Source of the DNA: a virus
Taxonomy: Duplodnaviria; Heunggongvirae; Uroviricota; Caudoviricetes
Reading direction: 5' to 3' (one strand)
DNA length: 4,612 nt
Virus record (IMG/VR): IMGVR_UViG_2660237951_000007
Location: 1 to 4,612 of that record
Part shown: one piece after another, positions 1 through 4,612 of the stretch
Position numbering within the stretch: position 1 is the first letter of the stretch
How the letters are laid out: every line of letters starts with the position of its first letter
Made by a program: the position numbers and the translations under genes
Notes under the pieces: generated by a model
What the model saw: only the letters and a program-made list of their open reading frames with translations
What the model was told of the DNA's origin: nothing
Databases searched by the model: none

Positions 1-182
1 GATTTGAGTTTGGGGTTTAGCGTGACAAGTTTGCGAGGGTGATCGGAGTAATCAGTGAACAGTTCGCCACCAACAATAACATCATAACCGTGGTTACGTG
101 TCGGTTGTCGCCCGTTATCCGTTCCTTCTGACCATGCCACCATATCCAGGAAAGCTTTACGCTGGGAATTTAGTGCCTGCAT
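1..182 (-). CDS. R: Endolysin, phage lambda R-type lytic transglycosylase; N-terminal 60 codons only, 3' end lies beyond the window start
   Basis: Absent from the supplied ORF track because it is truncated. Minus-strand translation from ATG at 182-180 reads MQALNSQRKAFLDMVAWSEGTDNGRQPTRNHGYDVIVGGELFTDYSDHPRKLVTLNPKLK, which matches the N-terminus of lambda R nearly residue for residue as I recall it, including the WSEGTD segment with the catalytic Glu. AGGAG (plus coords 189-193) sits 6 nt upstream of the ATG, inside the last codons of the preceding holin gene. Confidence 0.9.
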   Translation of the reverse strand, partial: MQALNSQRKAFLDMVAWSEGTDNGRQPTRNHGYDVIVGGELFTDYSDHPRKLVTLNPKLK

Positions 183-185
183 AAA

Positions 186-521
186 TTACTCCTTCGAGCT
201 ACCAAATTTGTTACCGATTACTCGCATTGCAGCCCCACGAATAGCATCGACACCGATCAGCCCCACGCCACCACCAATGGCAACAGAAAGCGATTTAGGC
301 CATCCGACATATTCAAGAGCGGATGCAAAGGTCAGCGTCAGAGCGCCACATAGCAAAATCTCGAGCGTTTTTCGCTTCCAGCCACCACCACCGCCAAAAT
401 AGGCGATGCGCAAACCAGCCATAACGATCGACATAATCACTGCACCCAGCGGTGTGTCTCCACGCCACCAGCTCTGAAACAACTCCAGCCAGTCCGGCCA
501 GGTATTTGGGTTATGAGGCAT
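186..521 (-). CDS. Class I holin, lambda S-like (about 111 aa from ATG at 521-519; the track ORF 186..617 is over-extended at its 5' end)
   Basis: Three hydrophobic segments (LGAVIMSIVMAGLRIAYF, TLEILLCGALTLTFASALEYVGW, SLSVAIGGGVGLIGVDAI) and a charged C-terminal tail. The N-terminus MPHNPN...MAGLRIAYFGGGG and the C-terminus GLIGVDAIRGAAMRVIGNK parallel lambda S (MPEKHD...AMAYLRGRYNGG and GYIGTDSIGSLIKRFAAKK, from memory). The stop TAA at 188-186 lies 3 nt before the R start, the classic S-R arrangement. The longer reading to 617 would overlap the methyltransferase stop codon and an intrinsic terminator, so the internal Met33 start is preferred. Confidence 0.75.
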   Translation of the reverse strand: MPHNPNTWPDWLELFQSWWRGDTPLGAVIMSIVMAGLRIAYFGGGGGWKRKTLEILLCGALTLTFASALEYVGWPKSLSVAIGGGVGLIGVDAIRGAAMRVIGNKFGSSKE

Positions 522-562
522 TTCGTCATCTCTCACCTCGCGATATTTGCGGGTGCTGTGTT

Positions 563-590
563 GGAAATAAAAAGGCCACGCAACGTGGCC
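563..590 (-). terminator. Rho-independent terminator directly downstream of the methyltransferase gene
   Basis: On the minus strand: GGCCACG-UUG-CGUGGCC (perfect 7-bp stem, plus coords 574-590) followed by UUUUUAUUUCC (plus 563-573). It begins 8 nt after the methyltransferase stop codon at 598-600. Confidence 0.6.
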
Positions 591-597
591 ACCAGAA

Positions 598-1650
598 TTA
601 TTTCCCCACCAGTTCACTTACCTCTTTCACCGTCTGATTAAACCGCTCTGACTCAAGTTCAACACCTAACGCCCGACGCCCCAGCGCCATTGCTGCTTTT
701 ATTGTGGAACCGGATCCCATAAAGAAATCAGCAACCAGATCACCAGGTCGACTACTGGCATTGATTATTTGCCGGAGCATATCCGCCGGTTTCTCGCACG
801 GATGTTTACCCGGGTAGAACTGAACGGGCTTATGCGTCCAGACATCGGTATAAGGCACGGAGACTGATACGGAGAAATAGCGCCGGAGAGATTTAAACTC
901 ATCCAGCAATTCAGAATATTTGCGATTCAGTGAATCATAAGATGCCACCAGCTGGTGGTGTGGTTGTTCCAGTTGTTGTTCCTGAAACTTCTCTGCCGCT
1001 ATACGGGAAAACAGTGCCTGTAACTTCCGATAGTCAGCCTCATTCGGCAACTGCCACTGACTGGCACCAAACCAGTGGGAAACCATATTTTTCTTACCTG
1101 TGGCTTCGGCAATTTGTTTTGCCGTTATACCCAGTTCGGCACGAGCATCCCTGAAATACGATATCAGCGGTGCCATTATGTGCTGTTTGAGTTCCCTTTC
1201 TTTTGCCGCATAGCCGTCACTTTTGCCGCGATATGGCCCCTGGTAATGTTCAGCAAACAGAACGCGCTCTGTGGCAGGAAAATATGCGCGCAGACTTTCT
1301 TTATTACACCCATTCCAACGTCCGGACGGCTTCGCCCAGATGATATGGTTAAGCACGTTGAAACGTTCACGCATCATGATCTCAATATCAGATGCCAGGC
1401 GATGCCCACAGAACAGGTAAAGGCTTCCGGCAGGTTTCAACACCCGCCAGAACTGGGCCAGACAGTGGTCCAGCCACTTAAGGTAATCTTCGTCCCCTTT
1501 CCACTGATTGTCCCAACCGTTAGGTTTCACCTTGAAGTAAGGCGGATCCGTAACAATAAGGTCGATGGTGTTATCTGGGAGGGTTGCGAGGTATTGCATG
1601 CAGTCAGCGTTGATAAGCTCAACACTGTTTATATTTACAGTATTTTTCAT
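598..1650 (-). CDS. DNA methyltransferase, beta-class N6-adenine/N4-cytosine family (DPPY motif; YhdJ-like), apparently orphan
   Basis: 350-aa ORF. Motif IV DPPY at residues 35-38 (plus coords 1537-1548) lies near the N-terminus and the AdoMet motif I FFMGSGST at residues 309-316 near the C-terminus; this IV-then-I order defines the beta group. N- and C-terminal blocks resemble E. coli YhdJ as I recall it (DLIVTDPPYF vs DLIFADPPYN; HPCEKPADMLRQIINASSRPGDLVADFFMGSGST vs [34 protein letters not shown]). No restriction endonuclease candidate is adjacent in the window. Confidence 0.88.
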   Translation of the reverse strand: MKNTVNINSVELINADCMQYLATLPDNTIDLIVTDPPYFKVKPNGWDNQWKGDEDYLKWLDHCLAQFWRVLKPAGSLYLFCGHRLASDIEIMMRERFNVLNHIIWAKPSGRWNGCNKESLRAYFPATERVLFAEHYQGPYRGKSDGYAAKERELKQHIMAPLISYFRDARAELGITAKQIAEATGKKNMVSHWFGASQWQLPNEADYRKLQALFSRIAAEKFQEQQLEQPHHQLVASYDSLNRKYSELLDEFKSLRRYFSVSVSVPYTDVWTHKPVQFYPGKHPCEKPADMLRQIINASSRPGDLVADFFMGSGSTIKAAMALGRRALGVELESERFNQTVKEVSELVGK

Positions 1651-1742
1651 AGATCCGTAAGCGTAACTCTGATAGGCTCACTATGCTTTTGCGCTAAAGC
1701 AGTGGGCCTTGGTTAGCTTGTGACCTGAAAGCATGAGCTAAT

Positions 1743-1773
1743 GGCTGGTTGGGTGCTACAACACCCACCAGCC
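1743..1773. repeat. Imperfect inverted repeat (12-bp arms, one bulged T, 6-nt spacer) in the intergenic region between the small ORF and the methyltransferase
   Basis: Plus strand GGCTGGTTGGGTG (1743-1755) ctacaa CACCCACCAGCC (1762-1773). The arms are reverse complements except for one extra T in the left arm. No U-tract follows on either strand, so it is not a canonical terminator. Confidence 0.55.
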
Positions 1774-1800
1774 GCCCATTTCCACAGCAGAATGCCCCCT

Positions 1801-1992
1801 TCAGTGGAGGCGTTTGTAACATCCAAACTGGTAATCTGATAACCCCGCCATAACCAGCTGCGTCAGGATGAGCTGGCATTTCTCTCGGCTTAGGTGCGTA
1901 TTCTGTGCAATTTCCCCAGCTGTCGCTGGTGAAGCGCTGAGTTCGTTAAAAACCGCTTTTGCTTCTTCTGTCATATAAGGTTGATTTTGCAT
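1801..1992 (-). CDS. Small (63 aa) winged-helix/HTH-like DNA-binding protein, family uncertain (PapI/FaeA-like pattern possible)
   Basis: ATG at 1992-1990 is preceded by AAGGGG (2005-2000) with a 7-nt spacer. The segment ATAGEIAQNTHLSREKCQLILTQLVMAGL has the helix-turn-recognition-helix spacing typical of small winged-helix regulators. The gene is co-oriented with and directly upstream of the methyltransferase gene. Confidence 0.55.
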   Translation of the reverse strand: MQNQPYMTEEAKAVFNELSASPATAGEIAQNTHLSREKCQLILTQLVMAGLSDYQFGCYKRLH

Positions 1993-2070
1993 GCCTTTTC
2001 CCCTTTTTTATCGTGTGACACACAGATAACTCTGGTTCATTTTTGCATCAAGCTTTAGATACAAAAGGCA

Positions 2071-2095
2071 TAAAAAAACCCCGCCGAGGCGAGGT
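2071..2095 (-). terminator. Promoter-proximal intrinsic terminator (tR'-like) between the Q-position gene and the cargo genes
   Basis: Minus-strand RNA CCUCGC-CUCG-GCGGGG (6-bp stem with one G-U pair and a tetraloop; plus coords 2079-2094) followed by seven U residues (plus 2072-2078). It lies about 30-55 nt downstream of the candidate promoter. Confidence 0.6.
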
Positions 2096-2103
2096 TAGAT
2101 ATA

Positions 2104-2160
2104 ATTATGACAAAATATAAAATTAGCTTCAAATATGGCTCATTTTGTTGCATTTTGCAA
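2104..2160 (-). promoter_or_regulatory. Candidate sigma70 late promoter (pR'-like) with downstream -10-like elements
   Basis: Minus-strand reading: TTGCAA (2160-2155), 17-nt spacer, CATATT (2137-2132). A second overlapping candidate is TTGAAG (2132-2127), 17-nt spacer, CATAAT (2109-2104). TATATT at 2119-2114 would fall at about +7 to +12 of the first promoter. The region is AT-rich and begins about 30 bp after the stop of the Q-position gene. Confidence 0.45.
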
Positions 2161-2190
2161 GCCCATTTGAGGGAGTTAGTGAAAGTTACC

Positions 2191-2883
2191 TCACATTTCC
2201 GCCACTTTCAGTTCTTGGTACTCTTCGTACCGTGACAAAATTTCGCTTAGTGCCTGGCTATCCATTTCAGCAAACGACGCTTTGAAAGCCGCCCAGTGGC
2301 CTGAATACACTCTGAGCCAGGTGGAACGCTCAACGCTGACCATGCGCGCCAGAGCTGCACCAGCATACTCCTGATAGGTATCGTTATTACGCGAGGCAGC
2401 AACTTCTTGCGCCGCCAGCCAGACAAGCCCTACCAGTTTTTTAGTGACGCGGCCCTGTATTTTTTTGCCGCTATGCTGACGCTGAAACTGTTCCCACACG
2501 TGCTGGCACATCAATGTCTGGTACCGGAAAGTAAGGTCATACCCATAGCAGTACCGCACCCATGCCTGCAAATGCTCACCCAGACCATTGACCGAACGAC
2601 GCCATGCTGAACAAGCGAACTCCGTATCTTTAATAGGCGGCAAAGGTCGACGACGGCTCCTTGTCTCAAGAACATAAAATGGAGTGGCCAGCGTTGTTAC
2701 AACCTTTGACCCACAACCTTCCCCACCCTCCATGACGATTTCAGGATGGTGCCGGGGGTATTTATTCTTATCTGCTGGTGGATGCTCACTGAACGCCTGC
2801 AGCTGTCCTTTTGTCGATCCTGATAAATCCGCCAGCGCGCGGCGCAGTTCAATCCGCGTATATTCCAGTTCTTGTAAATTCAT
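2191..2883 (-). CDS. Putative late-gene antiterminator at the Q position (non-lambda-Q family; assignment by synteny), 230 aa from ATG at 2883-2881
   Basis: An intact ORF directly downstream of a DUF968 gene and directly upstream of a promoter+terminator and lysis genes. This matches the ydfU-then-quuQ arrangement I recall for the E. coli K-12 Qin prophage. It shows no resemblance to lambda Q (no paired CxxC zinc-finger motifs). The track extends the ORF to a TTG at 2904; the ATG at 2883 has GGAG/GAG upstream and is preferred. Confidence 0.5.
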   Translation of the reverse strand: MNLQELEYTRIELRRALADLSGSTKGQLQAFSEHPPADKNKYPRHHPEIVMEGGEGCGSKVVTTLATPFYVLETRSRRRPLPPIKDTEFACSAWRRSVNGLGEHLQAWVRYCYGYDLTFRYQTLMCQHVWEQFQRQHSGKKIQGRVTKKLVGLVWLAAQEVAASRNNDTYQEYAGAALARMVSVERSTWLRVYSGHWAAFKASFAEMDSQALSEILSRYEEYQELKVAEM

Positions 2884-2904
2884 TATGCTCAGCGCTCCAT
2901 ACAA

Positions 2905-3966
2905 TTACGCTTTTGTTATTACGCCGATCGCCAGCGCTCGATTCATAAATCGGAATAGCAGCTCCAGCTGGGTACCGTGTTTTTTCTCGAACGCTGCAAC
3001 ATCAGCATGTAATTTGTCGTGACACTCTCTGCACAGAGGGATCACGAACAAATCGTGGGCTTTAGTGGCGGTACCGCCCATGCCGTGACCAATGACATGG
3101 TGTGGATCATCCGCTGGCCGCCGGCAACCTTCACAGGGCTGGGTTTTAGCCCACCGGGTATAGTCCTCATTCACCCACCTGCGGTGTTTTGGGCGCAACA
3201 TGAATGATTCAGGGGATTCAGGATCCGCATGCAGAGCCAGAACCTGTGGCTGGTCATAGGCCACTTCCTGATTTGTTCCATGCTTTAAATGCGCAGCCGT
3301 GACCGCAGGGGTGACCTTCTTCTGCAAAATGTTTTTTGTCGGTGGCATCGGCACAATGTCACTTTCGCGATATACGGATAAAAACGGCTCATCCGGTAAG
3401 CGAAGCGCATGCTGGGCCATCCTTTCCGTGATTGCATCAGCAATGCCTGAGTAAACGGCCCACCAGCACAATTCACCGAGGGATAGTTCACGCTCGTTGT
3501 TGTAGCCAAGCGAAGACAGGATAGAACTGATCAGCCAGTTAATGAGATTACGCCGGGCCAGTTCTGCCAGCGCCGCGGTGGTTTGCTCGCGCAGCTGGTT
3601 ATCGCAATGCCAACAGAGCAACATTGATCCAGGGGGATGTCGCATCGTTACCAGCTCATGATGGTGATAATTAGTGTGCGGGTACTGGCATTCCTTCACG
3701 TTACGCTCTAGCCAGGATTCCAACCCGGACAAACCGCCTGCTGCACGGATAACTCTCTCGTCGGTGAAGAATTCCTCGAGGGACTTATCTTCTGCCAGCG
3801 GCTGCCGGGCATCAGGGACGAGCCCCGACGGAAGCCCAGCCATGCTTTTTGGCTGAGGCTCCACCAGCACACGCCCCTGTTGAAACAAAGACATCAGTTC
3901 GCTACCCGGCTTTAACAGCACAAGCCCAAGGCGCGGAACAGTCTCGGCTGTAAACAGTCCTCTCAC
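2905..3966 (-). CDS. DUF968-family prophage protein with C-terminal HNH-like Cys/His motif (YdfU-like)
   Basis: 353-aa ORF. The C-terminal CEGCRRPADDPHHVIGHG...VIPLCRECHDKLH matches a CxxC...HH...CxxCH zinc/HNH-type motif. The GTG start at 3966-3964 overlaps the TGA of the upstream gene (GTGA) and is preceded by AAGGGG (3980-3975) with an 8-nt spacer. Family recall is from memory of lambdoid nin-region proteins. Confidence 0.75.
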   Translation of the reverse strand: MRGLFTAETVPRLGLVLLKPGSELMSLFQQGRVLVEPQPKSMAGLPSGLVPDARQPLAEDKSLEEFFTDERVIRAAGGLSGLESWLERNVKECQYPHTNYHHHELVTMRHPPGSMLLCWHCDNQLREQTTAALAELARRNLINWLISSILSSLGYNNERELSLGELCWWAVYSGIADAITERMAQHALRLPDEPFLSVYRESDIVPMPPTKNILQKKVTPAVTAAHLKHGTNQEVAYDQPQVLALHADPESPESFMLRPKHRRWVNEDYTRWAKTQPCEGCRRPADDPHHVIGHGMGGTATKAHDLFVIPLCRECHDKLHADVAAFEKKHGTQLELLFRFMNRALAIGVITKA

Positions 3967-4612
3967 GCGGCATGCCCCTTAGCGATGTGTGCCGTCCACA
4001 GGCCGCCGATCCACTCGATGCCTTTGGGTGTAAAACGTGCCTGGCTAAAGGCGTAGTTTGTTTCGCTCGTAGTGCCAGTTTTCACTTCAAACCGCCCGGC
4101 AGCAATGTGCTGGTGCCGAGGTGTCAGCACTCCACTGAGCCGGTACAAAATGCCGCTCTCAATGAGGAACAAGCGGAAATCGGTCTCTTTGGCCTGCAAC
4201 AGCTTTGCCACCTGGCGGAAAGACATTGAGCCTTTGGCAGTACAATATCGATCGACAAACTCAACTTTCGGCGCGGCAGCGGCTAACTGCTGGCTGAGTT
4301 GTTCTTTCTGCTCGGCCAGATCCGCGGCGAGACGTAATGCCTCCGGCAATGTTTGCGGGACACTTACGGCCTGGCTGTTCTCCAGCTCTTGCCAGCGATC
4401 GACAACAGCGGCGGTAAATTCTGGCGACAGCCTGGCGACGATCACCAGAGAATCACGTTTGTTAAACCAATACTCCTCGTAGGTTTGCCCGTTTTGCGGG
4501 TGTGTGTAGGGGGTGTGCGCCAACGGCGCGGTTAAAATACCAGCAGATGCAAGGCGCTCAGCTGAGCGCTTCACATCACCATGTTTGCTCTGCACCAGCC
4601 TGGCAATTTCAC
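3963..4612 (-). CDS. Rha-family phage regulatory protein with C-terminal KilA-C/ANT (antirepressor-like) domain; 5' end beyond the window
   Basis: The N-terminal part (EIARLVQSKHGDVKRSAERL ... TYEEYWFNKRDSLVIVARLSPEFTAAVVDRWQELE) follows the Rha pattern. The C-terminal part (FRQVAKLLQAKETDFRLFLIESGILYR...GRFEVKTG...FTPKGIEWIGGLW) follows the KilA-C/ANT pattern. The reading frame stays open upstream of the track's GTG at 4595 to the window edge, so the true start is outside the window. Confidence 0.8.
   Translation of the reverse strand, partial: EIARLVQSKHGDVKRSAERLASAGILTAPLAHTPYTHPQNGQTYEEYWFNKRDSLVIVARLSPEFTAAVVDRWQELENSQAVSVPQTLPEALRLAADLAEQKEQLSQQLAAAAPKVEFVDRYCTAKGSMSFRQVAKLLQAKETDFRLFLIESGILYRLSGVLTPRHQHIAAGRFEVKTGTTSETNYAFSQARFTPKGIEWIGGLWTAHIAKGHAA

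Follow-up and report, generated by a model that had tools for sequence, protein, structure and literature searches.

Described Q antitermination systems

Three families of Q antiterminators have been distinguished, one of which is the Q82 family (PF06323; PMC9388147). It is the only one of the three without a solved structure, and such a structure has been named as a priority (PMC9388147). For phage 82, the Q-binding element (QBE) has been located between the -35 and -10 hexamers, a segment from -31 to +30 has proved to be enough for Q engagement, and dimeric binding has been presumed for 82Q (PMC4914094). The late promoter of this phage, pR', carries an extended -10-like element that gives rise to a sigma-70-dependent pause at +25, and it reads GCC at +15 to +17 (PMC5001585). 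In the open literature searched, no description of DNA recognition by the Q82 family has been found, and the literature searched has likewise yielded nothing usable on the 82 pR' sequence or on QBE mutations.

Several comparable systems have been described. The QBE of phage lambda, whose Q belongs to PF03589, also lies between -35 and -10; it is a 13-bp site, and the helix-turn-helix reads a 4-bp patch at one of its ends (PMC9388147). Lambda Q possesses a zinc ribbon arm, its promoter needs a -35-like element beside the pause element, and the pause occurs at +16. Q of phage 21 (PF06530) uses its helix-turn-helix to bind direct repeats in the promoter, with TGAGCA subsites 8 bp apart that are both essential (PMC6606751). 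AlpA, a monomer of 168 aa acting at PalpB of Pseudomonas aeruginosa, binds through its C-terminal helix-turn-helix to a 6-bp site between -35 and -10 (ABE, GGGACG at -25 to -20) and needs a sigma-dependent pause, the element of which lies at -1 to +5 (PMC9371919).

The locus and its relation to the phage 82 cassette

We have analysed a stretch of 4,612 nucleotides, referred to as the window, which comprises positions 1 to 4,612 of the IMG/VR virus record IMGVR_UViG_2660237951_000007 (Caudoviricetes). All window genes are located on the minus strand (Table 1). A promoter TTGCAA-17-CATATT (2160-2132) adjoins the gene of a Q82-family antiterminator, reads toward the lysis and late genes and is collinear with pR' of phages 82 and 434. 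The stretch 2141-2160, to which a preliminary description had drawn attention, spans -35 to -16 in promoter numbering, the register being taken from homology. With considerable confidence, we regard this stretch as the -35 hexamer and most of the spacer of a constitutive lambdoid late promoter that contains the QBE for the antiterminator encoded upstream. The QBE has been assigned to this place because the patch at -27 to -22 follows residue 191 of Q without exception, as set out below.

The window Q is 35% identical to Q of phages 82 and 434. After Q, these two phages read TTGCAA AACTGGATTAAAAGCCA TATACT ... AAATTTGGTATGTTG ... terminator, and the phage 82 cassette has in common with the window the PF06323 Q, the -35 hexamer TTGCAA, the order of the elements and a near-identical spacing; by all testable criteria, the element in the window would belong to the phage 82 type of Q cassette. 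The two differ in the patch, which reads CTGGAT in phage 82 versus TGCAAC in the window, and in the recognition helix, TSKNWSETF versus ERSTWLRVY. The -10 hexamer TATACT of 82 and 434 is offset by 2 bp from the one in the window, and Q of phage 82 overlaps its promoter, whereas the stop codon of the window Q lies 31 bp before the -35 hexamer. Furthermore, the TG of the 82 pause element is missing in the window, and the 82 spacer has neither a palindrome nor a repeat of at least 5 nt.

An AF2 model of the window Q, which is of moderate quality (mean pLDDT 72.7, with 55-69 over residues 171-190), predicts helices at 171-181 and 186-229 that would form a C-terminal helix-turn-helix. PDB sequence searches with the single Q and with a 57-sequence profile have found no related structure. 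A zinc ribbon as in lambda Q is unlikely, because a single Cys is invariant; the window resembles the lambda QBE in having a conserved block of 13 bp whose upstream end holds a variable patch. AlpA would be alike in its C-terminal helix-turn-helix, its short site and its need for a sigma-dependent pause, but shows no sequence similarity to the window Q, and its pause element is ~10 bp closer to the binding site than the putative one of the window (PMC9371919). With the phage 21 promoter, the window shares the presence of direct repeats, whose period, however, is 10.

Table 1. Coordinates of the features of the window, in minus-strand order
Feature	Coordinates	Strand	Basis or remark
Ant/Rha-like protein	4595-3963	-	
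DUF968/HNH protein	3966-2905	-	
Q antiterminator, 230 aa, ATG at 2883, stop TGA 2193-2191	2191..2883	-	Pfam PF06323, E = 4.6e-41, covering 11-223
Predicted helix-turn-helix codons, residues 173-197, YAGAALARMVSV-ERSTWLRVY-SGHW	2293..2367	-	AF2 model
Predicted recognition helix 185-193 (ERSTWLRVY)	2331-2305	-	R191 codon at 2313-2311
30-bp block, Q stop codon to -35 hexamer	2161..2190	-	Conserved in the window's lineage (conservation profile)
-35 hexamer TTGCAA	2155..2160	-	Near-invariant in all Q82-family loci including phages 82 and 434, TTGTAA in a few; equals left palindrome arm and start of repeat copy 1
17-bp spacer AATGCAACAAAATGAGC (-29..-13), candidate Q-binding element	2138..2154	-	Conservation
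Conserved 13-mer AATGCAACAAAAT (-29..-17)	2154-2142	-	Near-invariant; 71 unique class A sequences (Q identity 55-100%) show 4 variant forms, at 4 positions
Lineage-specific patch TGCAAC (-27..-22), proposed recognition-helix contact	2147..2152	-	Covariation with residue 191; overlaps right palindrome arm
-10 hexamer CATATT, 17 bp from -35	2132..2137	-	[C/G/T]ATATT conserved in relatives
Predicted transcription start, +1 = 2125	2124..2125	-	Register with phage 82 pR'
Putative sigma-dependent pause element homologue (+6..+14)	2112..2120	-	Alignment with 82-type promoters; relatives TGATATGTT, window TTATATTTT
Second extended -10-like element TGTCATAAT (+14..+22)	2104..2112	-	Flagged as promoter -10 by consensus scan
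Intrinsic terminator equivalent to tR', with hairpin (2096-2077) and T-run (T7, 2076-2070)	2070..2096	-	RNA fold -14 kcal/mol, z = -3.4
63-aa winged-helix-like ORF, first after terminator	1992-1801	-	Weak hits: DprA_WH E = 1.4e-4, TrmB E = 6.6e-4
N6 DNA methylase	1650-598	-	Pfam
Class S holin	617 or 522 to 186	-	Pfam

Anatomy of the late promoter

The conserved promoter has been missed by a consensus scan because TTGCAA/CATATT scores 8 of 12 at a threshold of 9. TTGAAG-17-CATAAT (2132-2104), which was flagged by the scan, has been rejected as the main promoter, as its -35 falls into a stretch that is variable among relatives. A divergent promoter starting from TTGCAT on the plus strand (2148-2153) has been discarded as well, there being no -10 at 16-18 bp. 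For the register of +1, the pR' landmarks of phage 82 named above (PMC5001585) have been applied to the relatives L005 and L047, which sets +1 at 3 nt before TTTG. Downstream of the -10 hexamer, the window reads TAATTTTATATTTTGTCATAATT and then enters the hairpin terminator; nearly all relatives have a hairpin with T-run at the corresponding place, with stems that vary. In analogy to phage 82, a pause in the window would be expected near 2101. The pause element of the window has TT in place of the extended -10 TG (TAATTTTATAT vs TAATTTGATAT), as have the identical loci L055 and L056, and due to this replacement pausing may be weaker or shifted in the window.

Repeat and palindrome as a bare pattern

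On the plus strand, positions 2141-2160 read CATTTTGTTGCATTTTGCAA. Direct reading and a script have both confirmed the pattern as it had been described, namely CATTTTG twice with a 10-bp period (2141-2147 and 2151-2157) and the palindrome TTGCA-ttt-TGCAA (TTGCAtttTGCAA, 2148-2160). The overlap with the -35 hexamer of a late promoter, which had been part of the same description, exists on the minus strand only (TTGCAA, 2160-2155). Chance levels have been determined by dinucleotide-preserving shuffles. Exact 7-mers repeated at a period of 10 or 11 occur twice in the window against 0.53 expected (P(>=2) = 0.095), and 5-3-5 palindromes five times against 4.9 expected. For the 198-bp AT-rich intergenic region alone, P amounts to 0.034 (repeat), 0.29 (palindrome) and 0.009 (overlap of the two). 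Repeat and palindrome go only weakly beyond chance. As a bare pattern they are weak evidence; the evidence for function has been drawn from conservation.

Spacer classes follow the Q lineage

Three sets of loci have been compared: 134 loci with relatives of the window Q (annotated phages, one genome per species, and IMG/VR), 120 loci found via the DNA motif itself, and 125 more loci for which Qs of class B, class C and phage 82 served as queries. The promoter module directly follows Q in 121 of the 134 loci of the first set. In a few contigs (L163/L084 = IMGVR_UViG_3300045115_000039, L352, L355, L359 and L377), Q and module are separated or the module is missing after Q, and the separation has apparently been caused by inserted genes. 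Across all loci, -35 to -30, -11 to -7 and the pause element are near-constant, and the spacer falls into classes following the Q lineage. Class A, to which the window belongs, starts its spacer with AATGCAAC (94 loci), class B with AA[C/A]CGAAC (12 loci), class C with AACC[C/T]GAC (3 loci), and class D/E, which includes phage 82, with AAGT.. or AACTGG (12 loci).

Among the 71 unique class A sequences, -35 to -17 is invariant or nearly so, though Q identity falls to 55%, and terminator stem and downstream genes are exchanged while -29 to -17 stays fixed. Variable positions in this class are -16 (G and A about equally), -13, -12 and -6 to -1. The 13-mer AATGCAACAAAAT is present as one exact copy in the window and as one in the 45-kb genome of phage Eeyore. 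The exact 19-mer TTGCAAAATGCAACAAAAT has the class A helix encoded directly upstream in 111 of 113 IMG/VR contigs, the two exceptions being L163, which carries an insertion between Q and promoter, and L213, an unrelated match. On the alignments, the A-rich segment at -21 to -17 and GC at -14/-13 present themselves as shared features of the family, and the shared A/T-rich segment may aid bending.

Upstream of the promoter, the window's lineage shows strong conservation of minus-strand positions 2161-2200 (-36 to -75; GAAATGTGA-nn-TAAaTTTCACTA), which include the final codons of Q and two short inverted repeats, GAAAT..ATTTC interleaved with GTGA..TCAC. For the match of Q and QBE, the 30-bp block that separates the Q stop codon from the -35 hexamer is unnecessary, because it is absent in the class A loci L004 and L024, where Q overlaps the promoter. 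Two protein sites have been considered in this region and rejected: a CRP-like site TGTGA..TCAC across the Q stop codon has a spacing of 8 bp, not 6, and for an IHF site near -45 the consensus finds no match.

Repeat and palindrome as possible binding units

The comparison of classes bears directly on the proposal that repeat and palindrome act as functional units. Repeat copy 1 (-32 to -26) and the left palindrome arm (-35 to -31) consist mostly of the -35 hexamer plus AA, which is common to all classes including phage 82. A repeat of at least 5 nt has been found in classes A and B only, and the palindrome in class A only. The changes between lineages alter one patch (-27 to -22) and not both repeat copies or both arms. 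Copy 2 ends at -16 in either G or A within one Q lineage, so that only its CAAAAT is conserved. Repeat and palindrome are probably not the units recognised by Q. What has stood of the preliminary proposal is the candidate Q site as such, for which the location in -35 and spacer downstream of Q, the Q82-family gene and the covariation of spacer and helix all speak; its two structural units are not supported by the comparison, their left halves being family-wide sequence and the lineage changes being confined to a single patch.

One may still postulate that the 10-bp direct repeat is functional and that two Q protomers occupy tandem CAAAAT(G) at -32 to -26 and -22 to -16, similar to Q21, which binds two direct repeats (PMC6606751; bioRxiv 10.1101/651190). 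The CAAAA repeat with period 10 in classes A and B would agree with this arrangement, and so would the distance to the pause element: if the latter is assumed at +9 to +14, an AlpA-like protomer would sit near -16 to -11, about one helical turn downstream of the patch, so that a single protomer on the patch may sit too far upstream (judged from PMC9371919) and a second protomer or an extended contact may be needed. However, copy 1 is mostly the universal hexamer plus AA, lineage switches alter -27 to -22 only and not both copies, the polymorphism at -16 affects copy 2 within one lineage, and classes C, D and E including phage 82 have no repeat (at longest 4-5 nt of an A-run, with period 11). 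In addition, a segment that starts at -31, and so truncates copy 1, suffices for the 82 QBE to work (PMC4914094), and while a QBE of the Q21 type has two subsites that both bear specificity, one patch varies between the Q lineages here. We consider tandem binding to the repeat unlikely.

The palindrome TTGCA-N3-TGCAA has been weighed as an operator for a symmetric dimer, of Q or of another regulator, that might also modulate initiation via the -35 hexamer. Its arms are invariant in 10 of 10 unique class A spacer variants, and an inverted 5-bp copy of a -35 half so close by is expected with ~0.7% by chance for one given patch (rough estimate). Against this stand the chance frequency of 5-3-5 palindromes in the window and the absence of the palindrome from all other classes of the Q82 family; moreover, the left arm follows from the -35 hexamer, the right arm from the patch specific to the lineage, and -35 to -32 is dispensable for the 82 QBE (PMC4914094). 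A dimer operator of this kind is even less likely than the tandem arrangement.

Covariation of the spacer patch with residue 191 of Q

The helix 9-mer (residues 185-193) and the spacer class match one to one: xRSTWxRVY is paired with AATGCAAC, SxSTWxExY with AA[CA]CGAAC and xR[DE]TWYQTY with AACC[CT]GAC. Three columns separate class A from class B, two of which (185 and 191) lie in the recognition helix, and residue 191, with R in class A, E in class B and Q in class C, is the only one of ~230 columns to tell these three classes apart. A pooled tally has comprised 344 Q-plus-promoter hits with 182 unique combinations. Bases -27 to -22 read TGCAAC (106), CGCAAC (2) or GTCAAT (1) with R at residue 191; CCGAAC (19), ACGAAC (1) or CTGGAT (32) with E; CCCGAC (1) or CCGAAC (1) with D; CCCGAC (9) or CCTGAC (1) with Q; GTAGAT (3), GTCAAT (1), GTCTCC (1) or GTTGTG (2) with K; GTGAAT (1) with M; and GTAGAT (1) with N. 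The rule, which pairs G at -27/-26 with a basic residue 191 and C with an acidic or amide one, is followed in 182 of 182 unique combinations, although the independent changes behind them are few (about 5-7), because the spacer classes are largely clades. The pairing of Arg or Lys with G and of acidic residues with C would correspond to the usual chemical preference.

Contrasts between related Qs point in the same direction. Phages 82 and 434 combine E with CTGG, versus K with GTAG in 82-like E. coli prophages that are ~71% identical. The mosaic L030 is ~90% identical to class B in its N-terminal 130 residues and carries helix and spacer of another type (in contrast to L026/L027), while the Qs of L258-260 are 73-78% identical to a class B Q (in contrast to L027) and yet carry an R helix and a class A spacer. 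The Qs of L004/L024 are placed with class C by the tree, yet helix and spacer are class A. Some Q genes (L030, L258-L260, L004/L024) are mosaic, with ~130 N-terminal residues from one lineage and the helix-turn-helix region plus adjacent spacer from another; recombination appears to transfer the DNA-binding helix and its site as a single unit. It is conceivable, at odds that we place a little below even, that specificity in the Q82 family is set largely by residue 191 reading -27/-26 (R/K with G, E/D with C, Q with CCCG) and that helix and site, less than 200 bp apart, are exchanged as a cassette.

With only ~150-180 bp between helix codons and site, co-inheritance could account for part of the association. 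Taken to its end, this thought leads to a spacer on which no factor acts: its conservation would reflect common descent and promoter DNA shape, with an A-tract tuning promoter strength, and the helix match would be hitch-hiking. In class A, good conservation extends to the flanks (-66 to -36 and some of the transcribed region), the A/T-rich segment at -21 to -17 is common to most classes, and at less than 200 bp helix codons and site would be inherited jointly. Such an origin, however, does not account for -29 to -17 staying fixed in class A while Q diverges and the downstream region is swapped, nor for the observation that the classes differ from each other in the spacer patch but not in the polymerase elements. 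In mosaic Qs, helix and spacer belong to the same class, hitch-hiking would not be expected to pair Arg/Lys with G and Glu/Asp with C in a chemically sensible manner, and a QBE at this position has been demonstrated functionally for phage 82 (PMC4914094). We therefore hold a factor-free spacer to be improbable.

Least credible, to the point that we hardly reckon with it, is a lambda CII site (TTGY-N6-TTGY) formed by plus-strand TTGT-N6-TTGC for an antisense, paQ-like promoter into Q: the consensus match at 2145-2158 on the plus strand, the CII site and paQ -35 that the phage 434 record annotates as overlapping its pR' -35, and the retention of GCAA-N6-ACAA in classes A and B are outweighed by phage Eeyore (Q 96% identical, same spacer), which is without a lambda CII homologue (tblastn E = 0.12, inside cI), carries a PF06892 CP76-type CII instead, and has its sole other TTGY-N6-TTGY within 45 kb in the tail-fibre region, not near the immunity genes, with no pRE-like site. 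At the fixed 13-bp distance, the -10 in the window reads GGAGTT without the key A, the N6 that is free in CII sites is invariant at 2141-2160 and tracks the Q lineage, and chance alone would yield ~0.5 such patterns on the two strands of 4.6 kb (rough estimate); the combination of flanking repeats, -10 and lambda-type CII that marks CII-activated promoters of the pRE, pI or paQ type has not been found for this place. Phages of the 82 type (phage 434, L001, 1866-1879; L047, L051, L052) possess a perfect TTGC-N6-TTGC within the final part of their Q gene, where it covers the pR' -35 hexamer on the antisense strand. It is conserved in several 82-like E. coli prophages, and the 434 record annotates it as the paQ CII site.

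Proposed mechanism and implications

With the spacer as QBE of the upstream Q82-family antiterminator, the course of late transcription can be outlined by homology with phage 82 pR' as follows. RNA polymerase with sigma-70 would start near 2125 and would pause at ~+25 as sigma region 2 rebinds the -10-like element at +6 to +14. Q would then bind the spacer DNA via its C-terminal helix-turn-helix and engage the paused polymerase, and the modified enzyme would pass the hairpin terminator at +30 to +56 into the methylase and lysis genes. Specificity would come mainly from -27 to -22 (TGCAAC, 2152-2147), read by residues 185-193, in which R191 would probably make contact to G at position -26. Family membership of Q, architecture of the cassette, conservation and covariation have been established here, whereas start site, pause, physical binding, stoichiometry and the residue-base contact are deduced from homology and covariation.

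What is known of Q-dependent antitermination is left unchanged by these results, and the element is an ordinary but well supported example of a known control element. The comparison points out where Q is likely to bind in a prophage lineage that is widespread among enterobacteria and splits Q-specific bases from polymerase elements, with a testable recognition rule for the Q82 family as a by-product. For annotation, TTGCAA-N17-NATATT followed by TAATTTGATATGTTGCC and a terminator can serve as a marker of the late transcription start in these prophages. If the residue-191 code is true, it would be simple and rewritable, would allow orthogonal antiterminator/promoter pairs and would offer a handle on how the third Q family loads onto RNA polymerase.

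Genomic context

The downstream late genes at 186..1992 (63-aa ORF, methylase and holin) would be under Q control. The 63-aa ORF could represent a second late regulator; a small ORF at the same position in phiNP, IME1369_02 and yong2 has been annotated as 'MotA-like transcription regulatory protein'. Between the small ORF and the methylase lies a non-coding gap of 150 bp (1651-1800) with GC-rich inverted repeats (e.g., GGTGCTACAACACCCACC). A tRNA search of the window has found none, and Rfam has given sub-threshold matches only, which are treated as chance: istR with 22 bits against a gathering threshold of 45, and P26 with 20 bits against 36 (E = 0.11) in the gap 1651-1800. The closest relative of the window is Escherichia phage Phi06_2987 S, with 93% overall and 100% over 1990-2300, and similar prophages with at least 80% coverage are present in 13 complete E. 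coli genomes.
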